Positions 4,592-16,325 are shown, counted from the stretch's first letter. The stretch is 64,000 bases of DNA from Myxococcota bacterium (GCA_036012755.1 DASCPX010000137.1:130456-194455); one strand, 5' to 3'. Notes: generated by a model from the sequence alone, not told the origin. Made by a program: numbers and translations.

Positions 4592-5512
4592 ATGAAACCA
4601 AGCCGCCGGCACCTGCTCGCGGGTAGCGCCAGCCTCGCCGCGCTCAGCGCCGTGGGCTGCAAGTCCCCAGACTCCCCGCCGGTCACAGACAGCGCCGGCG
4701 ACTCCACCACGATCGACACCGGCCCGCTGCCCGACCTCGGCGAGCCAGAGGTCGGCTCGGAGCTGTGGCAGACGATGGCGGCCTACGTGCGCGCCAGCGC
4801 CGACGGTGAGATCGGCGGCCGCGTGAACCTCTTCAACCCCGCCGCGGTGCCTCATCGCGTCGTGGTCCAGGTCTTCACGCTCTACGGCCAGCTCGTGGCG
4901 CGAGAGGAGATCTCCGCCCTCGGCGCCGAGCTCTCCGACCACGTCGAGCTGCACGACCTGCTCGAGCGGAACGATGTGCCGCTGCCCTTCGAGGGCCACC
5001 TCTGGGTGGGGGCGACCCCCGAGTCCGGCAGGAGCTTCATGGGCCTGCAGGGCATCATCTTCGACTGGTACGGGCCCGCGCACATCGCCTCCGTCCACGG
5101 TATGCGGGATTTCGGCAACTCCAACTCCGACTCCAGCTGGTCGGACCTCATCCTGCCCAAGGTGATCAGCACCGAGCGCTACGTCTCCCGGGTCGCCATC
5201 GTGAACGCGACCGCTGACGGCGTCTCAGAGGGACTCAACGCGCGGCCGCAGGTGATCATCAGGGACGACGAGGGCGAGGAGCTCGTCAACTTGGAGCTCG
5301 ATGAGCTCCCGCCCTACTGCGCGACGATCTTCACGGTGGACGAGCTGCCTGGCGGCGACGCGCTGTCCATCGGCAGCATCCAGATCCTCGAGCCGGAGGC
5401 CGGGCTCGTCGCCATGGCCTTCCTCGTCGATCGCGACAACGACGGCTTCGTCTCGGCGGATCACTTCTTCGACCGCCACTTCGTCACCCACCTCGCCGGC
5501 TTCGTCGGCTGA
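4592..5512 (+). CDS. Tat-exported lipoprotein, unknown function
   Basis: 'SRRHLL' twin-arginine motif, 'AVGC' lipobox, SD GAGG. Confidence 0.75.
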   Translation: MKPSRRHLLAGSASLAALSAVGCKSPDSPPVTDSAGDSTTIDTGPLPDLGEPEVGSELWQTMAAYVRASADGEIGGRVNLFNPAAVPHRVVVQVFTLYGQLVAREEISALGAELSDHVELHDLLERNDVPLPFEGHLWVGATPESGRSFMGLQGIIFDWYGPAHIASVHGMRDFGNSNSDSSWSDLILPKVISTERYVSRVAIVNATADGVSEGLNARPQVIIRDDEGEELVNLELDELPPYCATIFTVDELPGGDALSIGSIQILEPEAGLVAMAFLVDRDNDGFVSADHFFDRHFVTHLAGFVG

Positions 5513-5523
5513 AAGGAGCGAAC

Positions 5524-6369
5524 ATGGCTGATGCCGTGACCCTGGCCCGCTTCTGGCAGCTCTACGAGTCCGGGTACCTGCCCTCGGTAGGCTCGTGGGT
5601 GCAGGTGGCGCCTGACTCGGACCTCACCACGGTGCTCAACGCCTTCAACTCCCTCGGCGAACAGCAGCTGGAGATCTTCCTCATCGACCAGTCCGGGAGC
5701 ACGGTGGTCTGGCACGTGCCGGACCCGCTGGCGACCAACAAGACGCTTCGGATCGACCTCGAGACGATCATCCCGGCTGAGTCCCTGCCATTCGAGGGTG
5801 CGGTCTGGGTCTGGGCCCTCGGCGACAGCTCTGAGGGCAGCATCGGCCTGCAGGCCATCGACCTGGACTTCGTGGATCGGACCCGCCCAGAGGGCCACAG
5901 CGCCGGCAGCGTGCACATCGTCTTCGACTTCATCAACACGCTGTCGATGGGTCCCTTCATGGACTACGTCTCGCCGCGGGTGCTGGTCGACGCGACCCCC
6001 GAGGGGAGCCAGCGGTACCAGAACTACCTGGGCGTGGCGCACATCCCGCTGGAGCTGGGGACCGCAGGCATGGAGCTCGAGATCTCCCTCACGAACGAGG
6101 CCGGCGAGACCCAGACCGCGGATCCGATCGAGCTGGAATCGATGGGTTCGTGGTTCGGTAGCCTGGAGGCGCTGTTCCCCGGGATGCCGGAGTTCCTGGC
6201 CCGTGACGGAGAGGACCGCGGCTACGGCACCGTCAACGTGCGCGAGGCCAACGGACGAACGACGGGGCTGGCAGGCATGTTGAAGGTGGTCGATGTCGTC
6301 AACAGCTCGCTGATGGTCAACCACCTCAACGATCGCAACTTCGCGCGGCCGGCCATGAAGGAAGACTGA
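5524..6369 (+). CDS. Signal-less paralog of the upstream Tat lipoprotein
   Basis: AGGAG SD; collinear shared motifs with 4592..5512 (NxFN, LPFEGxxWV, GLQ, SVH, RY, HxxDRxF). Confidence 0.75.
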   Translation: MADAVTLARFWQLYESGYLPSVGSWVQVAPDSDLTTVLNAFNSLGEQQLEIFLIDQSGSTVVWHVPDPLATNKTLRIDLETIIPAESLPFEGAVWVWALGDSSEGSIGLQAIDLDFVDRTRPEGHSAGSVHIVFDFINTLSMGPFMDYVSPRVLVDATPEGSQRYQNYLGVAHIPLELGTAGMELEISLTNEAGETQTADPIELESMGSWFGSLEALFPGMPEFLARDGEDRGYGTVNVREANGRTTGLAGMLKVVDVVNSSLMVNHLNDRNFARPAMKED

Positions 6370-6430
6370 GGGTCGGACCGCGTGACATCGCCGAGGCTCC
6401 TCGCTCCTCTCCTGCAACCGAGGAGTCGAG

Positions 6431-7500
6431 ATGCCGCGTGTCGCCGTCGTTGGGACCGGGCCCGCCGGGCTTGCTGCCGCAGAGCGCCTGGCCGAAGAGG
6501 GCCTGGAGGTCACGCTCTTCACGCTGGGGCACCACCTCGACGGCAAGGCATGCAGCTGGGAGATCGAGGGCGGGCGCACCGTCGAGCACGGACAGCACGT
6601 GCTCCTGGGCTTCTACGAGGAGCTGCCGGCGCTGTTGGCCAGGGCGGGCGTCGACGCTCGCGAGACCACCGTCTCGAACCGGGGCCACTACCGGATCTTC
6701 GAGGATCGGGACGGCGAGGCCCACCACCTCTACCTGGGGGAGTGCTCCCCGGGATCCCTGGTTCGAGGTCTCCGGTACACGGGCTTCACCGCCGCGGAGC
6801 TAGCGAAGTTCTCGGTGTTCTTCGCCTCTGTCGCGCCCTCTGTGATGCTCGGCGTCCCCGAGGCCTGGTACGACATCTGTCTCTCCGCCTGGGCCCTGCA
6901 GAGGGGCTTTCCCCTCAGCCTGGTGACCACCAACGCCTTCCGGTCGAGCCGCGAGGCCCAGCTCAACTGGCCAGGGGAGATCTCGGCCTACTCGATGCTC
7001 AAGACCCTCCGCATCGTCGGGCGGGACTACACCAACGCAGAGGCCTGCATCCCGGCCGGCGGCATGAGCGCCATCTGGTGGGAGCCCATCGCCCGCCGCA
7101 TCGAGGCCCTTGGTGGCGAGCTCCGCCGGTACTCCAAGCTGGTCGGCATCGAGCACGACGACGGACGCCTGTCGGGCCTCACCTTCGCCTCGCCTCGGCC
7201 GCACGCCCCCGGCCAGCGCTACGTCGAGGGGACCATCCCCACGGTGCCCGGGAGCGAGTGGACAGAGGGGGGACTGGACGGCGCCGTGCTGACGCTCCCT
7301 GCGCCAGCCTTGCAGGAGGTCCTCGATCGAGACCCCGTCCTGCCCCACCTGCCCGAGCTGCGAGGCATCGCGCGGCTGAAGACCATCGCGCCTTTGGGCC
7401 TGCACGTCTGGCACCGGAACGCGGTCACGGAAGGACCCCTCCATCGGGGCCGCCCTGCACTTCGTCGGCCAGGAGACCTGCTTCGATGGCCTCACCCTCA
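6431..7500 (+). pseudogene. Truncated FAD-dependent oxidoreductase (HpnE/carotene desaturase-like amine oxidase family)
   Basis: GxGxxG 'VVGTGPAGLAAA' and 'VEHGQHVLLGFY'; the protein-like frame breaks near 7433 and the family C-terminal 'AGD' motif is missing. Confidence 0.65.
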
Positions 7501-7645
7501 CCTTCGGTCCCAGCCTGCTGCCGGTGGAGACTCGCTGGTGGACCGTGGGCCTGGCCGTGATGCCAGAGCTGGTCGTCCCCCTTCGACGGAGAGCCTGGAT
7601 GGACCGAGTGGGGTGTGGGCTTCACCGGCAGGCTGTAGACCTGGC

Positions 7646-7984
7646 TCAGGTGTCGTCGTCGTCGTTGCAGTTGGAGTCGATGCCGTCTCCGGGGGTCTCT
7701 TCGGCGTCAGGATGGATGTTGGCGTCCTCGTCGTTGCAGTCCTCGTTCGAGTCGTAGCCGTCGCCGTCCTCGTCCACCCGCCCGGTCTCGGCCACGCCAT
7801 AGAGCGCCACCACGTCGCCGCCGGTGTCCTTGTCGCCGCACGCCGCCAGGGCGAGGCCCAGGACCACCGCCACGCCCGGCAGGCGTGGATCGATGCTCCG
7901 GATGGAGACCCCACAGTGAGGGCAGCGGGGCTCGCTCTTCCGGTAGAAGCAGGCGCAGGAAGGACAGGGCAGCATCTGGGACAT
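7646..7984 (-). CDS. Small membrane/lipoprotein: zinc ribbon, TM/lipobox, ALYG motif, MopE-like metal-binding repeat; putative rSAM substrate
   Basis: CPSC...CPHC; VAVVLGLALAAC; DVVALYGV; 'DEDGDGY....DCNDEDANIHPDAEETPGDGIDSNCN'. Confidence 0.8.
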   Translation of the reverse strand: MSQMLPCPSCACFYRKSEPRCPHCGVSIRSIDPRLPGVAVVLGLALAACGDKDTGGDVVALYGVAETGRVDEDGDGYDSNEDCNDEDANIHPDAEETPGDGIDSNCNDDDDT

Positions 7985-8015
7985 GGCGACAGCATGCCAC
8001 CGCCCGACGGGCTGG

Positions 8016-9212
8016 TCAATCGAGTGGGAGGTCTTCGACGATCAGCTCGAAGCGACCGTGGTCGAAGGGGGCGCCGGTGGCCTGCTCGCAGCGCACCAGG
8101 CGCTCGCGCCGGCCCTGCCTCGCCAGCTCTGTGACCCGGTGGTAGCAGAAGGGGTTGTTGCCCCGGCGGCCAAGGACGGAGGTGCTCGTGGAGGGGCAGC
8201 CGGCCAGGCACACATCGCCGTAGTAGCAGCTGCCGCAGAAGCCCCAGAGCTGGCTCTGGTCCCGAGATCGGCAAGCCAGCACCGAGGGATCCTGCTCCCA
8301 GATCTGGCGCAGGGAGAGCTCGGAGAGCCGGCCGGTGCAGTAGTCCTCTGTGGGCATCGACAGGCAGGGCTTGACCTTGCCGTCGCTCTCCAGGCCGATC
8401 ACCCAAGTGCCCCCCTTGCAGCCAGGCCAGTGGGTGGCGCTGCCTCCCGGACGCGAGCGCAGCACGACCTCGTGGGGCCCGAAGTAGCCCACGTTGTCCC
8501 CGGCGAAGATGTCGAAGGGAGGACGGCCTGGCAGCTCGGGAGATCCCAGCTGGATGGCGGCGAGGCTGTCGATGACGGGCACGACCTCCCAGGGCTGCAG
8601 GAGCCAGTCGGGCGCGTCCGCCGCCCTGCCCATCGGCGAGGTCAGCTGGACCTGCCAGCCGTCCACGCCGTGGGCCCGCAGGAGCTCGGCCAGCTCCGGC
8701 AGCTGGTGCATGTTCAGGCGGTTCACCTGGGTATTGGCCGACACGGGGAGCCCCGCGGCCACCCCCGCGTCGAGGGCGCCGAGGGCCAGGTCGAAGCCGC
8801 CCGCCACCCTCCGCATGCGCTCGTGGGCGTCCCGCAGCCCGTCCACCGAGACCGCCAGCTGCCCGAGCCCGGCGGTCGCGAGGCGATGGGCCATGGCCAG
8901 GTCCAGGGCCCGACCGCCGGTGAGCACCGAGACGAAGACCCCGGCGTTCACCAGCCCCTCGATGATGAGCTCCAGGTCCTCTCGCAGGTAGGCCTCGCCC
9001 CCGATGAGGGTGACCTCGCGGCAGCCCAGCTCGGCCAGCTCGGCCACCACCTCCAGCGTCGCCGCCGTGTCCAACTCCCCGGGCTCCGGCAGCCCGGCGC
9101 GACTGCCGCAGTGGGCGCAGGCCTGGTCGCAGCGACGGGTCAGCTCCCACACGGCGTAGACAGGCACGGTCTGGGGCTGGCCGGGTCCTGGCCGCCGGCG
9201 GCTGCTGGGCAT
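8016..9212 (-). CDS. Radical SAM/SPASM peptide maturase, PlpX/nif11-class maturase 3 (splicease)-like
   Basis: 'YAVWELTRRCDQACAHCGSRAG', 'TLIGGEAYLRED'; SPASM 'GCKGG..LESDGKVKPC..CGSCYYGDVCLAGC..GRRGNNPFCYHR'. Confidence 0.85.
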   Translation of the reverse strand: MPSSRRRPGPGQPQTVPVYAVWELTRRCDQACAHCGSRAGLPEPGELDTAATLEVVAELAELGCREVTLIGGEAYLREDLELIIEGLVNAGVFVSVLTGGRALDLAMAHRLATAGLGQLAVSVDGLRDAHERMRRVAGGFDLALGALDAGVAAGLPVSANTQVNRLNMHQLPELAELLRAHGVDGWQVQLTSPMGRAADAPDWLLQPWEVVPVIDSLAAIQLGSPELPGRPPFDIFAGDNVGYFGPHEVVLRSRPGGSATHWPGCKGGTWVIGLESDGKVKPCLSMPTEDYCTGRLSELSLRQIWEQDPSVLACRSRDQSQLWGFCGSCYYGDVCLAGCPSTSTSVLGRRGNNPFCYHRVTELARQGRRERLVRCEQATGAPFDHGRFELIVEDLPLD

Positions 9213-9218
9213 CGTCGG

Positions 9219-9689
9219 CTACTCCGCCAGCTTGCGCAGGCGACCCTCGAGGGCCTCGATGTCCTCTTCGGAGAGGGCGCCGCGTAGGACCTCGACCACC
9301 TCTCCCGCCTTGTCCATGACGTAGCTGGTGGGCATCGCAGCCGGATCGAAGAGGCCCACCACCGCGCCATCCGGATCCAGGCCCACCAGGAGCGACAGCT
9401 CCAAGCGCTTGATCGTCGCGTCGACCGGGGGACGACGGCGATCGATGTTGATGGTGATGACCTGGGCGTCGCTGCCTTCGAGGCGCTCGCTCAGGGCGTC
9501 CAGCATCGGCAGCTCCGCGAGGCACGGAGCACACCAGGTCGCCCAGAAGTTCAGGAGTGTGGCCTTGCCCTCCAGCTGGGAACGACCGAGCTGGGCGTCT
9601 GCCGTCGTTGGCAGGAGGAAGGCAGGCGCGTCGCTCCCGACGGCGGTGGCCGCGTGAGCGGGGCCCAGGAAGAGCAGCAGGCAGCCCAT
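9219..9689 (-). CDS. TlpA-family thiol:disulfide oxidoreductase
   Basis: 'LLNFWATWCAPCLAELP', 'MPTSY'; signal peptide. Confidence 0.9.
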   Translation of the reverse strand: MGCLLLFLGPAHAATAVGSDAPAFLLPTTADAQLGRSQLEGKATLLNFWATWCAPCLAELPMLDALSERLEGSDAQVITINIDRRRPPVDATIKRLELSLLVGLDPDGAVVGLFDPAAMPTSYVMDKAGEVVEVLRGALSEEDIEALEGRLRKLAE

Positions 9690-10858
9690 CAGTAGACCCA
9701 CGCCGTCGACGTCCCCCCCGTGCCGCTGTCGACGCCGTCGCTGGGGGTCACCGTCAAGGTCCACTGCTGGCCTGTGTGCACGTCCTCTCCAGGCACCTCT
9801 GTGCCGGTCCCGTAGGCCGCGCCGTCCACCGTCCAGGCCACCGTGTAGGTGATCGCGTCGCCGTCCGCGTCGACGGACGCGGTGTCGATCATGGCGATGA
9901 GGGTGGTGCCCTCCCTGGGGTTGGTGGGGTCGATCCACACCGTGGGAGCCGTGGGCGCGGTGTTGGCCACCTCGACCTCGTCGCTCGCGACCGTCTCGCC
10001 GACCCCCTGGTCGTCGCTGACGGTCAGCTCACAGGACACGAGCTGCGCGCGCACCACCGAGCCTGCCGCGAGGATCTCGCCCTCGGCTGCCGCCACTCCA
10101 TCGATCGTCCAGACGATCTCTGTGCTCAGCTCGTCGTCGTCGGCATCGTCCTCTCCCAGCCCGATGCAGGTTGCCTCCGTCTCGGCGGTGAGCGGCTGGG
10201 GTGTGATCACTGCGGCGCCGAAGGTCGGCGGTGTGTTCGAGATCCCGACACCTGCCCACGCCTCGGCCCGGGCCTGGCTCCCGTCGACGGTCGCCGCCCT
10301 GCAGAGCCACTGCTCGTCGCGGGTGGTCTGGTCCGGGTCCACGCTGGAGCTGTCGGAGTCCTCTACCTCCACCCCGTCTCGGAACCAGGTGTACATGACC
10401 TCCAGCTGCTCGCCGTCGGGGTCCGCCAGCTCGACGGTGGCATCCAGGGTGTCAGAGGTGGTGGGCTGCTCGGGAGAGAGCGTGAGGCTGATCTCCGGGC
10501 CCTCGTTGGCGATCTGCACGTCGTCGAGGACCTCGTCGCTGACCAGTTCGCCAGCTCGCGCCGTGACGCTGAGGCTCCAGGTCTCTCCCACCGAGGTGAA
10601 GGAGGCGGGCACGGCCGCCGCGTCGTCCAGCTCTGGGACCGGCTCCCCGTCCACGCTCCAGCGCAGCGTCAGCTCGGGTGAGGCGCTCTCGGAGCTCTCC
10701 CCCGGGACCAGGACCAGGGCCAGGAGGTCCGCCGCGCTGCCAGGTGCCTGGGGCTGGATCGACACCACCGGCGCGGTGATCCAGGCGGGCTCCTCTGGCG
10801 TCGTGGAGGGTCGACCCCAGTCCTGATCGCAGGCGGGCAGCAGCAGGAGCCCCAACAT
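9689..10858 (-). CDS. Ig-like repeat lipoprotein
   Basis: LLLPAC lipobox; about 4 repeats 'NTxP...I.P..P.....L.....D.DGD....Y.W..DG......W...VTP.D'. Confidence 0.75.
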   Translation of the reverse strand: MLGLLLLPACDQDWGRPSTTPEEPAWITAPVVSIQPQAPGSAADLLALVLVPGESSESASPELTLRWSVDGEPVPELDDAAAVPASFTSVGETWSLSVTARAGELVSDEVLDDVQIANEGPEISLTLSPEQPTTSDTLDATVELADPDGEQLEVMYTWFRDGVEVEDSDSSSVDPDQTTRDEQWLCRAATVDGSQARAEAWAGVGISNTPPTFGAAVITPQPLTAETEATCIGLGEDDADDDELSTEIVWTIDGVAAAEGEILAAGSVVRAQLVSCELTVSDDQGVGETVASDEVEVANTAPTAPTVWIDPTNPREGTTLIAMIDTASVDADGDAITYTVAWTVDGAAYGTGTEVPGEDVHTGQQWTLTVTPSDGVDSGTGGTSTAWVY

Positions 10859-11736
10859 CAGGAGCCCACCAGGACGACGGCGGTCGTCACGGGCTCGCCC
10901 TCTGTGCGCCCGTCGTAGGGGGTGACGACGCAGTAGACGGTCTCGGCGCCGGCGTAGTCGTCCAGGTCCAGGCTCGACAGGCTCCCAGGCACCGCGTCGT
11001 CGTCCACGTGCCAAGCATAGCGGAAAGCAGCCGGATCGTCGTCCGCGTCCTCCCAGCCGGTCGTGGACACCGACAACATGTTGTCTTCGACCTCGATCGT
11101 CGCGCTGGCGACCGAGGGTGCGGCGTTGTCGATCACCGCGTACTGCTTCAGCTCCTCGCCCACCTCCTCGCCGTCATCGGGGGTGACGCTGACCTCGACG
11201 AGCTGATCTCGCAGCGCCAGGCCAGCCGGCAGCGAGGACGAGATCTGGGTCTCCAGCGCCGCGCCGTCCACCGCCCACTGGTAGGCGAGGCTGACGGGAT
11301 CGCCGTCCTCGTCCGAGGTCGTGACCTGGGCGATCAGCGGCTGGGTGACATCCCCACTCTCGAGCACCACGTCGTCCACGACCGGGGGGGTGTTGACGAT
11401 GAGCACCTTGGCGCTCAGCGGCGGCTCTCGGGGGCCGTCCAGCTCTGGGGTGACGACCACCCTCCAGCTCTCGCCCTTCTGGGTCTGGTCCGCTGGGATC
11501 ACCAGGCCCTCCAGGCCCACGATCTCCTCGTTGTCCCGGAACCAGGCGGTGGAGATGGCGGAGGTGTTGTCGCTGGTGGTGACCCCTACGAGCAGATCAT
11601 CTGCCGTCTGCGGTCGATCGGGGCTGAGCACGACCTCGATGACGCCTCCGGTGTCCTGCTGGGGTTCGCCAGCCTCGCCACCTCCCGGGACATCACAGGC
11701 GGCGAGCAGGACGAGGGCGAGGAACTCAGAACGCAC
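10858..11736 (-). CDS. Ig-like repeat lipoprotein (same repeat type as neighbour)
   Basis: LLAAC lipobox; about 3 repeats with 'D.DGD...Y.W.VD...VTP.DG'. Confidence 0.75.
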   Translation of the reverse strand: MRSEFLALVLLAACDVPGGGEAGEPQQDTGGVIEVVLSPDRPQTADDLLVGVTTSDNTSAISTAWFRDNEEIVGLEGLVIPADQTQKGESWRVVVTPELDGPREPPLSAKVLIVNTPPVVDDVVLESGDVTQPLIAQVTTSDEDGDPVSLAYQWAVDGAALETQISSSLPAGLALRDQLVEVSVTPDDGEEVGEELKQYAVIDNAAPSVASATIEVEDNMLSVSTTGWEDADDDPAAFRYAWHVDDDAVPGSLSSLDLDDYAGAETVYCVVTPYDGRTEGEPVTTAVVLVGS

Positions 11737-12829
11737 TGGTCACTCCGAAGCGACCCACGTGGGCGACGAAGGACCAGTCGTCGTGGGTCTGGAGATAGTA
11801 GTCGTATGCCAGGTGGACGGAGAGCTGGGTGAGGCGCTCTGGATCGAGGCGCGAGCGCACTGGCTCGAGGTCGACCACGGCCTGGGTCCCCCAGAGCTGG
11901 CTCACCATGGCGTCGTACTTGTAGTCCAGGCTGAGGTAGGTGAGCTGGCGGGCCTCGGCCGCGGTGTAGCTGTCCTGGTGGAAGTCCGACGCGGTCTGCA
12001 CGTAGTGCCTGTAGCGGAGTCCCAGGATGACCAGCTCGCCGACGTGCTGGTTGTAGGCGAGCTCGGCGGTCACCGAGCGGATCCCCCAGTCGTCCCGGTA
12101 GAGCCTCACGAAGGGGTGGAGGGCCCCCCGGATCGGCACCCACTGGTCCACTCGCAGCGAGGCGGCCTCTCGGAAGCGGCGCTCGGGGTGGGTCTCCATG
12201 ACGTAGACCGGACTCTGTTCGGCGTGGGAGACGATGTCCGAGTAGTAGGGGCTGGCCTGGTAGCCACGCACCCAGGTGGGGCTGTAGCTCAGGGTCAGCA
12301 CCGTTCCGCGCGTGAGGACCTGGGCGAAGGTGAAGCGCCAGGCGTCGGTGTCCTTGCGGAGTGACTCCGTGCCGGCCTGGCCCAGGCGCAAGGGCTCGAT
12401 GGTGTCGAAGCTGTGGTACCAGTAGGCATCCAGGGTGGTGCAGCGCTGGGCGAAGTCGCGGCTGAGACCGCCCCCCACCGTCGTCGAGCCGTAGTCGGGC
12501 TCCACGCTGCGCTCCAAGAGCATCGAGCCCCGCTGTGCCCCGCGGTCGTAGCCCACGCCCAGGCTGCCGGCGCGGCGGGTCTCCTCGCCCATCTCCGGGC
12601 TCGCCGAGCTCATGCCGTCGATGCGTCGGGATGCGGAGGAGATCACGTCCACGAAGGCTCTGCCGGTCACCGCCACCGTGTCGGAGACGTCCATCGAAGC
12701 GTTGGCAACGGGAGTGGACACCAGGGTGCCAAGGGAGTCGGTGTAGAGGTGGCCCGAGACCATCACCCGTTCATCCGCAGCCGCCACCCCGACCAGGGCG
12801 GCACCGAGCAGGGCGAGGCTCAGTTGCAA
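11726..12829 (-). CDS. DUF3570 family outer-membrane beta-barrel, putative flavinylation substrate
   Basis: 'VDVISSAS', 'SVEPDYGS', 'ETHPERRFR', 'RLYRDDWGIRS.T', 'RYRHYVQTASDF'; terminal Phe; context with DUF4266, TlpA and ApbE. Confidence 0.85.
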   Translation of the reverse strand: MQLSLALLGAALVGVAAADERVMVSGHLYTDSLGTLVSTPVANASMDVSDTVAVTGRAFVDVISSASRRIDGMSSASPEMGEETRRAGSLGVGYDRGAQRGSMLLERSVEPDYGSTTVGGGLSRDFAQRCTTLDAYWYHSFDTIEPLRLGQAGTESLRKDTDAWRFTFAQVLTRGTVLTLSYSPTWVRGYQASPYYSDIVSHAEQSPVYVMETHPERRFREAASLRVDQWVPIRGALHPFVRLYRDDWGIRSVTAELAYNQHVGELVILGLRYRHYVQTASDFHQDSYTAAEARQLTYLSLDYKYDAMVSQLWGTQAVVDLEPVRSRLDPERLTQLSVHLAYDYYLQTHDDWSFVAHVGRFGVTSAF

Positions 12830-13026
12830 CCGCAGCCCCCGCCGGCGACCGCGTAGCCGCCAGCGCTGCCTTCACGCGTGCAGATGAAGTGCTGCTCGAG
12901 GAAGAGGGACTCGGGGATCAGCTCCGGCTGCATGACCGGGTCGGCCAACAGCTCCCGCTCATAGGACCGCACGGTGGCGCAGCCGCTCAGCAGCAGCACC
13001 AGCAGGACCTTCAAGAGTGTCTTCAT
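12820..13026 (-). CDS. DUF4266 family lipoprotein
   Basis: 'LLSGCATVRSYERELLADPVM...REGSAGG....GGGCGCN'. Confidence 0.9.
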   Translation of the reverse strand: MKTLLKVLLVLLLSGCATVRSYERELLADPVMQPELIPESLFLEQHFICTREGSAGGYAVAGGGCGCN

Positions 13027-13033
13027 GGGCACC

Positions 13034-15286
13034 TCAGTTGTCCAGCGCTCCCTGGTCGATCCAGGTAGCGATGTCCGCGCTCTCGTCCGTGGTGAACCAG
13101 CCGCTGGCGTGGTGATTCCCCTTCGTGACGAGGGCGCTCGTGGAGCTGCTGTAGGGGGTGACTGTGCCGCTGGACATGACCAGATCGTAGGAGCTCACGT
13201 CGAGGTCGCCGTCGATCCTCTCGTCACCGTGGCAGCTGTGACAGCTGGCGATCAAGATGGGCAGGACGGTGTCGTTGAAGGAGGTCGGGGGCCAGGTGGT
13301 GGCCGAGAGCTCCACGACGTTGTCGTCCTCGTTGCCGTCGGCGTCCTCTGCTCGCACCACCAGGTACCAGGTGCTGCCGTAGTCCAGGTCTTCGAACTCC
13401 GCCGAGGTCTCTCCGGGCGCCGTCGTGGACTCGGGCACCGAGAAGTCCTGCCCACCGGCGACATCTGAGAGGTAGAGGCGGTAGATCAGCTCGGATCGCG
13501 GCGTGGAGTCGTCCGAGGCCGCGGACCAGCTGGCCTGCAGGGCCGTCTCGCTGGTGGCCTCCAGCGACTCCACCCCGGCGAAGACCGGAGGCCCCTCGCC
13601 GCCGCCGCCCGCGACTCCGAAGAAGATGCTCTCGGACTCCGTGCGCGTGTTTCCGCTGAGGTCCGCCAGCCCGGCGCCGAGCCCGAGCTCGCAGAAGCTG
13701 CCCGAGGGGAGGGGGGCGAACAGCTGCAGCTCGATGGCGACGAGCTCGCTGTCGTAGCTGGGCAACAGCTGCTGATCGGCCCCGCTGCAGCTCAGGGTGA
13801 TCAGCTCGGCGTCGAAGCTGCGCAGGTCCGGGGCCTCGGACAGGGCCAGTCGTGGCTGGGTGTCGGGGTCGTTGTCCGTGCTCCCGTCCCCGGGGGTCGT
13901 GCCGGTGATCCGAGGGGGTTGGCGGTCTTCAGCCGTGCCGATGGTGAGGCCCCACGATGGGACCTGCGCCTCGTTTCCGCTCAGATCCGTGGGGGTCGTG
14001 TCCAATCTCAGCAGCACCTGCTCCCCCGCTGGCAGGCCCTCGTCCGCGCTCCAGGTCAGCGTTCGCCCGTCTTCGTGCAGCTCCAGCTCTCCGAGCACCA
14101 CGACGCTGTCGTACTCGACGAGCAGCCCCTCGGCGCTCAGGGAGTCGGGGTCGAGCTCCTCGTCGAAGCGAAGCTGTACCGCGGAGCCGGGCGGGACCCG
14201 CCGGGTGTCGGGGGTGGGCAGGATGGCCTCGGCCTCGGGCGCGGTGTGATCGGGCCAGGTCTGGAAGACCAGCAGGGTGGGGCCTTCCTGCGCAGCGCCG
14301 CCCTCGCTGCGGAGCCCCTCGAGCCACAGCGCGCAGCTGCGACCTTCGGTCAAGGGCAGGCGGGGCTCCAGCTCGATCATGGCCTCTTCGCTGTCGTAGG
14401 AGACCGCGGCTCCCAGTGGGGCGCAGGTGGTGTCGAGCGAGGCGCTGTCCTCGCTGACGCTGGAGGCCTGAAGCGGGGCACGGAACCAGACCTGTAGCAG
14501 CCGCTCGGGGTCGACTCCGCTCTCTCCGCTGGCGGGGCTGGAGTCAAGCACCCGGGGGCCTCGATCCCCTCCGGTCTGGAAGTCGATGCGCTGCTGGGAC
14601 GCCAGGTGGTTTCCTGCCAGGTCCCGCAGGGCGCGCTCCAGCACCAGGGTGTACCCGGCCCCTTCCTGCAGCTCCTCCAGGGGTCGCAGGTAGAGCCGGG
14701 AGTCCTGCTCCGAGGCGATGATGGCGAGCTCCACGCTGCCCTCGTCCCCCTCCAGGTGCAGGCTGGCCGCGGAGAGACCGGCGACATCCAGCGGCTCTGA
14801 CAGCAGGATCTCGAAGGCGCCGAGCGTGTCGACTCCCTCCGCCTGGTCCGCCGGGGTCGACAGCAGGACCTCTGGAGGGATGTGGTCCGTCGCCACGAGC
14901 GCGCCGAGGGCGCCCTGGTCGCCGCCGGGCCGGTGACAGAGGTTGCAGTCCGCGGTCGCCGGTAGCTGGTGGTCCGCTGAGCGCTGGTCTCCCAGCTGGA
15001 AGGTCACCGCACCCGCCGGGAGGCGCTCGAGGCTGTAGAAGAGCCCGAGCTCGGTGCTGGTCGCCAGGAAAGTGGTGCGGCCCGAGCTGTCGGTGAGTCT
15101 CAGCTCCGCGTCGGCCAGCGGCGAGCCTGCCTCCAGGTCCGTGAAGACCGTCCCGGAGGCGGTGAAGCCAGGGTGGCAGGCCGCGCTGCTGCAGCTGGGC
15201 GTGCCAGCGTGCACGGCGTCGAGGTCGGCGTTGCTTCCAGCGCTCAGGTCGCAACCCGCGGCGAGTACGAGCAGGGCTGGGAGCAT
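13034..15286 (-). CDS. Lipoprotein cytochrome c: diheme N-domain, four SbsA/Big_5 Ig domains, FN3, C-terminal monoheme domain
   Basis: LAAGC lipobox; CSSAACH, CNLCH, CHSCH; four 'D..PP.V....P..G..GV.....FSE.LD...DL.GN' repeats; terminal 'WIDQGALDN'. Confidence 0.8.
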   Translation of the reverse strand: MLPALLVLAAGCDLSAGSNADLDAVHAGTPSCSSAACHPGFTASGTVFTDLEAGSPLADAELRLTDSSGRTTFLATSTELGLFYSLERLPAGAVTFQLGDQRSADHQLPATADCNLCHRPGGDQGALGALVATDHIPPEVLLSTPADQAEGVDTLGAFEILLSEPLDVAGLSAASLHLEGDEGSVELAIIASEQDSRLYLRPLEELQEGAGYTLVLERALRDLAGNHLASQQRIDFQTGGDRGPRVLDSSPASGESGVDPERLLQVWFRAPLQASSVSEDSASLDTTCAPLGAAVSYDSEEAMIELEPRLPLTEGRSCALWLEGLRSEGGAAQEGPTLLVFQTWPDHTAPEAEAILPTPDTRRVPPGSAVQLRFDEELDPDSLSAEGLLVEYDSVVVLGELELHEDGRTLTWSADEGLPAGEQVLLRLDTTPTDLSGNEAQVPSWGLTIGTAEDRQPPRITGTTPGDGSTDNDPDTQPRLALSEAPDLRSFDAELITLSCSGADQQLLPSYDSELVAIELQLFAPLPSGSFCELGLGAGLADLSGNTRTESESIFFGVAGGGGEGPPVFAGVESLEATSETALQASWSAASDDSTPRSELIYRLYLSDVAGGQDFSVPESTTAPGETSAEFEDLDYGSTWYLVVRAEDADGNEDDNVVELSATTWPPTSFNDTVLPILIASCHSCHGDERIDGDLDVSSYDLVMSSGTVTPYSSSTSALVTKGNHHASGWFTTDESADIATWIDQGALDN

Positions 15287-15292
15287 CGGCTC

Positions 15293-15300
15293 AGTATAGT
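15293..15300. promoter_or_regulatory. Overlapping bidirectional -10 elements
   Basis: AGTATAGT reads TATAGT on + (8 nt before ATG 15309) and TATACT on - (6 nt before ATG 15286); gap between starts is 22 bp. Confidence 0.55.
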
Positions 15301-15308
15301 GATCCGCC

Positions 15309-16325
15309 ATGGTCTCCCCTCGATCCATCGGCAGGTGGGTCCTGCCCGCCTCGGCGCTGCTGCTGACCGCCGCGGCGCCTCCCGTGGACGACGAGGCGAT
15401 GGTCCACGCGCAGCGGGAGCTGATGGGCACCGGCTTCCAGGTCCGGATCCCCGTCACGGAGCAGACCCGCCTGGAGGCGGAGCGGGTCGCCGAGCTTGCC
15501 CTGGACGAGGTCGCCCGCATCGAGCGCCTGGTCTCCAGCTGGCTGGCCGACAGCCAGCTCTCAGAGGTCAACCGCCGCGCTGGAGGGACCCCTGTGCCGG
15601 TGGACGCCGAGCTCCTTGGCCTGGTCCGGCGGGCCTTGGAGATCTGCAACCAGACCGGTGGGCTCTTCGACATCACCTATCGGCCGCTGGCGGCCGTCTG
15701 GGAGCTGTCGGCCGAGCCCTTCGTCCTGCCCGAGCCAGCCCTGGTCGCCGCTGCCCGCGACAAGGTCGACTGCAGCAAGGTCGAGGTGGACGAGGGAGCC
15801 TCGACCCTGCGCCTGGCAGAGGAGGGCATGTCCATCGGCCTGGGCGGCATCGCGAAGGGCTACGCGGTCGATCGGGCCTCTGCGTTGCTCTGGAGTGAGG
15901 GCTTCATCGACAGCCTCGTGGATGGGGGCGGGGACGTCCTCGCCCGAGGCAGACCCGCAGACCGCAGCTGGCTCGTGGGTGTGCAGCATCCCCGGGAGCC
16001 GCTGGGCACGCCGCTGGCCCAGGTCGCGCTGGAGGATCGGGCTCTGGTGACCTCTGGCGACTACCTGCGCTTCGCCATGCACGAGGGCACCCGCTACCAC
16101 CACATCCTGGATCCCCGCACGGGCCAGCCGGCTCGCGGGTTGATCTCGGTGAGCGTCCTCGACGCCTCTGCCGAGCGCGCCGACGCCCTGGCCACGGCCC
16201 TGTTCGTGGCGGGGCCGGAGGGGGCCCTCGAGCTCCTCGGGCAGCTCCCGGAGGTGGACGCGCTGTTGGTGATCGAGGGGGGCGAGCTCTCGATGACCGA
16301 GGGCTTCGCGGCGACGATGCAGTGA
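15309..16325 (+). CDS. apbE: FAD:protein FMN transferase
   Basis: 'LMGT', 'GLFDITYRPL...W', 'LGGIAKGYAVD', 'TSGDY', 'YHHILDPRTG', 'ADALATALFV'. Confidence 0.95.
   Translation: MVSPRSIGRWVLPASALLLTAAAPPVDDEAMVHAQRELMGTGFQVRIPVTEQTRLEAERVAELALDEVARIERLVSSWLADSQLSEVNRRAGGTPVPVDAELLGLVRRALEICNQTGGLFDITYRPLAAVWELSAEPFVLPEPALVAAARDKVDCSKVEVDEGASTLRLAEEGMSIGLGGIAKGYAVDRASALLWSEGFIDSLVDGGGDVLARGRPADRSWLVGVQHPREPLGTPLAQVALEDRALVTSGDYLRFAMHEGTRYHHILDPRTGQPARGLISVSVLDASAERADALATALFVAGPEGALELLGQLPEVDALLVIEGGELSMTEGFAATMQ

Follow-up and report, generated by a model that had tools for sequence, protein, structure and literature searches.

A predicted two-gene splicease system with a zinc-ribbon prolipoprotein substrate in Myxococcota

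Gene layout at the locus

The window, i.e. the whole 64,000-nucleotide stretch of a Myxococcota genome that was analyzed (GCA_036012755.1, DASCPX010000137.1:130456-194455), encodes on its minus strand a radical-SAM (rSAM)/SPASM enzyme and, after an intergenic gap of 31 bp, a small open reading frame (ORF) that is the sole gene downstream of the enzyme on this strand (Table 1). Both ORFs carry the motifs that a preliminary description of this DNA had ascribed to them, namely an rSAM motif, a SPASM domain and a C-terminal GNNPFCYHR tail in the enzyme, and a zinc ribbon, an LAAC, a single ALYG and a MopE-like repeat in the small protein, the predicted precursor. Two metagenome contigs reproduce 5019-12212 at 99.9% without gaps. 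Searches for promoters and terminators returned no match.

Upstream of the enzyme lie TlpA, DUF3570, DUF4266 and ApbE genes, the TlpA stop being only 6 bp from the rSAM start; we treat these genes as incidental because they do not recur beside homologs of the enzyme. The full cluster (9219-16325), which resembles extracytosolic flavinylation/redox clusters, encodes a TlpA-like thioredoxin, a Big_5 protein and ApbE along with DUF3570, DUF4266 and two lipoprotein-like ORFs. On the plus strand, an HpnE/phytoene-desaturase-like FAD oxidoreductase (6431-7757) is convergent with the precursor and shows an apparent frame shift near 7425; since the same sequence is present in two other assemblies, this may be a broken gene. 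Elsewhere on the plus strand (1374-2729 and 4592-6369), one ORF fuses a thioredoxin-like part to a multiheme cytochrome c, and two others look like paralogs of each other and lack family matches, one of them having a weak Tat signal match.

Table 1. Features of the enzyme and precursor in the window, with variant loci elsewhere
Feature	Position or locus	Strand	Remarks
rSAM/SPASM enzyme ORF	8016-9212	-	398 aa; splicease family, divergent lineage
CxxxCxxC radical-SAM cluster motif (C28, C32, C35)	9108-9131	-	Invariant in 114-row alignment
SPASM region, seven Cys	8145-8420	-	Carries P284L, L286M and W/F341S relative to family
Predicted substrate ORF	7646-7984	-	Prolipoprotein of 112 aa with zinc ribbon, signal, lipobox Cys, LYG and MopE-like repeat
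C4 zinc ribbon (C7, C10, C21, C24; CxxC-x10-CxxC)	7913-7966	-	n-region of signal; four Cys invariant in 147-row alignment
Hydrophobic h-region, 14 uncharged residues	7841-7882	-	Family-conserved [LMV]GL motif
Lipobox LAAC	7838-7849	-	Cys49 (7838-7840) is predicted diacylglyceryl site and new N-terminus; C49 in at least 90% of alignment
ALYG, predicted splice site Leu61-Tyr62-Gly63	7796-7807	-	Single YG; Y62 invariant and G63 in at least 90% of the 147-row alignment, 61 rows of which had been picked for YG
MopE-like PF11617 acidic two-Cys repeat	7652-7741	-	Residues 82-111; 33.8 bits against cut-off of 27; accessory, exported part
CYG precursors	L082, L111, L112, L139, L144, L150; also L170, L171, L176, L179
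Sister-clade loci beside Cys/Asp-repeat lipobox proteins	L116:2579-3511, L117:1024-1524, L118:1380-1799

The enzyme and its place among spliceases

The enzyme carries YAVWELTRRCDQACAHCGSRAG at 9093-9158 and matches the Pfam Radical_SAM and SPASM models, both above cut-off. We infer two auxiliary clusters in its SPASM region, where the cysteines are at residues 265, 283, 326, 329, 335, 339 and 356. A structure model of high confidence (pLDDT 92) matches SkfB, PqqE and SuiB; a splicease-like solved structure was found neither by sequence nor by fold. The N-terminus shows no visible signal-like feature, as befits a cytoplasmic modifying enzyme.

Among the 46 NCBIfam families matched, TIGR03913 (357 bits) and TIGR04103 (352 bits), the latter of which we take to be the PlpX family, stand well apart from the third (134 bits), and both scores fall under the curated cut-offs of 591.75 and 725, respectively. 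The TIGR03913 cut-off is passed in none of 151 genomes of the phylum; matches at E ≤ 1e-80 are found in 47 of these genomes and in none of 14 controls. In its own genome, which is 96% complete, the enzyme is present as a single copy, and it is 41-44% identical to annotated family members on Nostoc, Azospirillum and Aureibacter plasmids. PlpX itself is placed in IPR026482 in the available part of PMC11002830.

The preliminary description had likened the enzyme to spliceases, a placement that is borne out by these top matches, below cut-off as they are, and by its grouping with annotated members in two phylogenetic trees, the reference sequences of which are annotated family members rather than assayed spliceases. 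In a quick 92-row tree, for which loci 1-80 were subsampled one in three, the 83-row family separates from nine other rSAM proteins of the genome (SH-aLRT 96; long outgroup branches). A careful 45-row tree supports a 42-row family group (100/100), within which the window enzyme belongs to a 15-row clade (100/99), and four named references together with 17 zinc-ribbon-linked enzymes fall in a 22-row clade (99/97). Both topologies have known spliceases nested inside zinc-ribbon-linked enzymes, but an AU test leaves a single clade of the zinc-ribbon-linked enzymes unrejected (p = 0.23), and we therefore claim family membership rather than nesting. Loci L116-L118, taken as a non-splicease outgroup, have Tyr-motif lipoprotein partners themselves, and the root of the 45-row tree thus does not divide spliceases from non-spliceases.

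How far has this copy diverged? Of 82 positions that are conserved in 79 family rows as well as in the four named references, it retains 77. Together with an 82% identical ortholog, it forms a long branch (length 0.63) and carries the substitutions N239D, P284L, L286M and W/F341S at positions that are otherwise fixed in 76-77 of the 79 rows (N239, P284 and an aromatic residue at 341 in 77 each). A dN/dS of 0.17 between the two orthologs argues that the enzyme is not decaying. D239 and L284 are shared by three further database proteins, and enzymes with one or both of these residues are found next to YG lipoproteins as well (L116, L117, L255), so these two substitutions alone do not signal a lost link to YG. 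A chimeric origin was considered and is unsupported, segment identities being higher to the in-group throughout. The 82% ortholog (locus L001) is the closest one and has no precursor within 4 kb; its genome (G001) holds two other enzyme-precursor pairs, L081 and L082.

The precursor and its family

In a structure model of the precursor, the ribbon (pLDDT about 88-90) and the repeat are confident, and the stretch between them is flexible. The ribbon is weakly similar to RanBP2/NZF fingers (Z about 3) and is a plausible candidate for the module by which the enzyme would recognize its substrate. Fold searches gave no match for the C-terminal repeat and otherwise weak zinc-finger matches only, an Atlas search with the precursor returned only unnamed clusters, under 0.9, and neither a Nif11 match, nor a DUF1843 match, nor a double-Gly cleavage site was seen in it. 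Basic residues (K16/R15/R20/R29/R34) precede the lipobox, which was called by pattern rather than by SignalP. Although the preliminary description had taken the substrate to be uncleaved, the hydrophobic stretch ends in this conserved lipobox Cys, and a signal-peptidase-II cut is to be expected after Ala48; the zinc ribbon is thus probably absent from the mature protein and the product lipid-anchored at Cys49. The predicted mature part, 64 aa in length, is acidic (tail net charge -21). Its VVALYGVA resembles the spliced PlpA3 and PcpA sites that are quoted in the supplement of PMC11414181.

Precursor-type ORFs with a zinc ribbon, a hydrophobic stretch and xYG recur beside homologs of the enzyme, a point that the preliminary description had proposed to check. 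A partner is present at 60 of 80 genome loci; for metagenome loci, many of which are on short contigs, the count is 49 of 80, or 14 of 22 among those of 6 kb or longer. Partner seeds were selected on the Cys pattern, not on YG, and then extended by HMM; the 161 matches from loci 1-150, minus four short ones and with duplicates merged, make up a set of 142 precursors. YG is present in 138 of these, compared with 46 ± 5 (maximum 62) in 1000 shuffles, and the four others retain the Tyr; two to five YG sites are present in 57. Among precursors from metagenome loci, 65 of 69 have YG. Many different residues are found as X before YG (A, L, D, E, V, P, C, K), and the site context of the window protein is the commonest in the family.

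The lipoprotein signal is similarly widespread. An uncharged stretch ending in Cys (family median 16 aa, 14 aa in the window protein) is found in 131 of the 142 precursors; A, G or S precedes the Cys in 129 of these 131, the strict lipobox consensus is fitted by 58 and a relaxed one by 94, and in 126 the first YG is located downstream of the Cys. A YG no more than 40 aa past the Cys is found in 102/131 precursors versus 12/170 other lipoprotein-like ORFs of the genome, and an [LMV]GL motif is found in the h-region of 85/131 versus 17/170, which suggests a signal helix more constrained than export alone would need. The Tat route is not favoured, RR being found in just 22 of 142 n-regions. The tails, in contrast, are interchangeable: a MopE-like repeat is present in just 44 of the 142 and is generic, with at least 150 PF11617 copies in the genome, and other tails are Gly-, Pro/Asp- or Cys-rich. 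The earlier idea that a ketoamide beside a Ca/Cu-type site is the point of the system is therefore not supported.

Additionally, 119 database homologs were gathered by their likeness to the window protein, and among these, 105 have the ribbon and 102 the Cys (preceded by A/G/S in 101 of 102). YG is present in 96 of the 105 ribbon-bearing homologs, and the other nine have YS, YT or YA at the same place. Subgroups in which DYS/DYT/DYA or AGYT replaces xYG (L172, P0156, P0159, P0163, P0164, P0168, P0174; further examples are P0182, P0189 and P0234, and L026, L042 and L047) are possible specificity variants; a non-YG site can be tolerated by the enzyme or be a sign of other Tyr chemistry.

Co-occurrence of enzyme and precursor

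The enzyme-precursor pair is common in myxobacteria-like organisms and is present in cultured Sorangium and Polyangium strains; the named nearest relatives of the genome are mostly Myxococcota, chiefly Polyangiaceae. Among 41 related genomes, a precursor (E ≤ 1e-6) is found in 24 of 29 that bear the enzyme and in none of 12 that do not, as judged by a profile of the N-terminal 70 residues that held rows from some of the tested genomes and for which the threshold was set after the output had been seen; kin are not independent here, and weaker matches are mostly ribbon-only. Across the phylum, 35 genomes have a precursor and 33 of these also have the enzyme; the two counted without it are G005, in which the enzyme is split over contigs, and one with a partial match.

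Beside enzyme homologs, no peptidase, transporter, RRE, target or immunity gene recurs, and no other neighbour family is seen at more than nine loci. The lack of an RRE gene, remarked on earlier for this locus, extends to the 96%-complete genome, in which PF05402 has zero matches, a model that short PlpY-type proteins may escape. LspA and Lgt are both present in the genome, with five Lgt matches; two LspA and two Lgt genes stand in tandem at G000:C59:100000-102591, outside the window.

Variants of the system

Some loci pair one enzyme with many predicted substrates. For example, locus L187 (G020:C197:5000-14500) has 12 precursors beside one enzyme; in three of these precursors the lipobox Cys is missing, and signal peptidase I may release them instead. 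Tandem arrays of at least 12 precursors per enzyme, with different X residues, are found at L187, G005:C128 and G012, and three genomes have 14-18 precursor-profile matches each. In a second variant, YG directly follows the lipobox Cys (7 of 131 precursors), such that X would be the lipid-bearing residue; five of six of these CYG loci form one enzyme clade (support 99).

A third variant concerns the head of the substrate. The partners at L116 and L117 are lipobox-YG proteins in which a short helix-like head replaces the ribbon, the partner at L118 has YA/YR, and the enzymes of all three loci are without the C-terminal extension. Two different heads before the same signal may point to a recognition role. 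BLAST did not align the helix-like head of the L117 precursor with the Nostoc Y-like ORF. Separately, a family enzyme on an alphaproteobacterial (Tropicibacter) plasmid (L154, 3680-5302) is nested among Myxococcota sequences; its operon also encodes a phosphotransferase, peptidases and another rSAM enzyme.

Comparison with known systems

With the PlpX/PlpY/PlpA and PcpXYA systems (TIGR04103), the window pair shares an rSAM/SPASM enzyme (41% identity to the annotated Nostoc member) and an XYG with hydrophobic and small residues around it; ALYG is found in the Nostoc precursor as well. Unlike those systems, it scores below cut-off (352 bits vs 725), no Nif11/NHLP leader or Nif11-type precursor and no Y/RRE partner were found, and a lipoprotein signal accompanies a zinc ribbon in its predicted substrate. 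It resembles TIGR03913/DUF1843 systems in the 41-44% identity of the enzyme to TIGR03913-type members, and it is set apart from that family of GDL-motif peptide maturases by both its score and the missing DUF1843 partner. What the pair does have in common with spliceases at large is CxxxCxxC plus SPASM, a grouping with TIGR04103/TIGR03913 members and an adjacent, conserved XYG precursor.

Excision of YG by the splicease family, leader-independent splicing of proteins and binary systems that lack a Y protein are all described in the available part of PMC11414181, and a missing Y protein at our locus is unsurprising given that the published binary systems lack it too. The pair is like the binary spliceases RhaX/RhaA, RasX and RcsX, beside which we set it by description rather than by direct sequence comparison, in having two genes and a substrate whose N-terminal part likely replaces Y. 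The published binary leader is an α-helix, whereas in the window protein its place would be taken by a C4 zinc ribbon together with an export signal, and the product is predicted to carry a lipid anchor. Not every YG is spliced, an example being the DYG of RcsA (PMC11626197, as far as available).

A second parallel is with the DAG-RiPPs (DybA/DybH and NedA/NedBC), which, in the accessible text of PMC13056109, are modified in the cytoplasm and then processed by housekeeping Lgt/LspA(/Lnt) at a lipobox Cys; MNIO-modified precursors are lipidated in E. coli with the cytoplasmic modification coming first. The window precursor is within their 50-160 aa range and has, by pattern, a signal-peptidase-II signal with its lipobox Cys N-terminal to the predicted modified site. 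In that text, by contrast, the examples are all MNIO systems, a zinc-ribbon n-region goes unmentioned, and the words "radical", "rSAM", "splic" and "zinc" are missing from the accessible main text. Compared with PF11617 Cu-binding_MopE proteins, the precursor likewise has a repeat above cut-off, one in number, but the repeat is only a passenger module here. The pair would work like a binary splicease and be routed like a DAG-RiPP.

Scott et al. screened 3418 candidates and reported YG-linked enzymes in 189 genera, according to the available parts of the reviews PMC10849128 and PMC9811515; the present enzyme clade was probably in their network, since Sorangium members are in UniRef. Within the literature in reach, mostly open-access and excluding the PMC13056109 supplement, we found no myxobacterial zinc-ribbon lipoprotein splicease substrate, and the accessible portions of PMC10533398 and PMC11876861 hold nothing on a lipoprotein reading of a splicease clade.

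A proposed pathway and its alternatives

We favour, with moderate confidence, a two-gene splicease-lipoprotein system in which tyramine excision at LYG is followed by Sec/Lgt/LspA processing to give a splicease counterpart of the DAG-RiPPs. The cytoplasmic rSAM/SPASM enzyme would bind the unexported prolipoprotein via the zinc ribbon and/or the conserved signal helix, which would stand in for a leader or Y protein. By analogy with the family, a tyramine equivalent (C8H9NO, 135.068 Da) would then be excised at Leu61-Tyr62-Gly63, leaving α-keto-β-leucine in the backbone. Sec would insert the protein, Lgt would put diacylglycerol on Cys49, and LspA, as the motif predicts, would remove residues 1-48 and the ribbon with them, such that housekeeping enzymes would act as transporter and leader peptidase. 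The mature 64-aa lipoprotein, with its ketoamide 12 residues from the lipid anchor, could finally trap Ser/Cys proteases covalently while tethered to the membrane, which is the weakest step, and the different X residues of an array would then make it an inhibitor panel.

These steps differ in strength. Tyramine excision is very likely for the enzyme family and likely for the window copy, in both cases by analogy; lipoprotein routing of the product is predicted from the signal with much the same assurance as the family chemistry, and the cell thus probably makes a lipid-anchored protein with a reactive keto-amide. The protease-trap role, suggested by PMC11626197 and the varied X residue, is tentative and falls a little short of an even chance.

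It is accordingly at this last step that the strongest alternative arises: is the protein spliced without being a protease trap? The ketoamide could instead be a structural or cross-linking handle, an aid to metal binding together with the acidic tail, or part of a segment shed as a peptide, a reading that we regard as distinctly possible if not probable. Very acidic or low-complexity tails, up to five YG repeats per precursor and the missing linked target or immunity gene all speak for it, and they have to be set against an X residue as variable as expected of a P1-like position, the finding, in the available part of PMC11626197, that the ketoamide is required for protease inhibition, with tested spliced peptides inhibiting proteases only when spliced, and the lack of a linked peptidase.

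A second alternative accepts a true enzyme-substrate pair acting at Tyr but gives it other radical chemistry, such as cross-linking of the Tyr or a reaction that stalls, or else relaxed specificity. We consider this unlikely. N239D, P284L, L286M and W341S do lie in SPASM-side motifs beside the cluster ligands C283 and C339, on a long branch under purifying selection, and Tyr is kept where Gly varies; nonetheless, two of these substitutions also occur in enzymes beside YG lipoproteins, the partner's site context is the commonest of the family, and the conserved core is largely kept.

Less likely still is a substrate that is spliced and remains an uncleaved single-pass membrane protein, the ribbon in the cytoplasm and the ketoamide beside a metal site outside. 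The 14-residue uncharged stretch is short for a transmembrane helix, the conserved Cys almost always follows A/G/S, and the MopE-like repeat is missing in 98 of 142 precursors, even though uncleaved proteins often combine a zinc ribbon with a membrane segment, in this genome too, signal peptides seldom have a folded n-region of 30 residues, and about a quarter of lipoboxes are non-canonical. Finally, an incidental neighbourhood, with the small ORF an ordinary MopE-repeat lipoprotein, is hardly credible: the abundance of MopE repeats in the genome and the orphan state of the 82% ortholog are outweighed by the YG enrichment, the co-occurrence and the fact that the genome has a single full precursor-type ORF, which adjoins the single enzyme copy.

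Outlook

On a wider and more speculative reading, which we think unlikely as a whole, Myxococcota widely display diversified lipid-anchored ketoamide proteins, the splicease "leader" is a lipoprotein signal with an interchangeable recognition module (a zinc ribbon, or a short helix in the sister clade), lipoproteins are possibly the ancestral splicease substrates, and the cyanobacterial and proteobacterial peptide systems may have arisen from them. If true, this would explain why native spliceotide products have yet to be found in extracts: in these bacteria, they would be in membranes and vesicles. The family thereby predicts a place to look, namely the lipoprotein and vesicle fractions of Sorangium and Polyangium. 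Even if Scott et al. 2022 lists the clade, the arrays, the routing as a lipoprotein and the two subtypes, CYG and helical-leader, would still be new.

The proposed system, if true, has several consequences. DAG-RiPPs would be extended from MNIO to radical-SAM backbone chemistry, and envelope proteins would offer a natural case of β-amino acids. Additionally, single-gene spliceases with a wide X range would become available as tools to label proteins, perhaps also those on cell surfaces.
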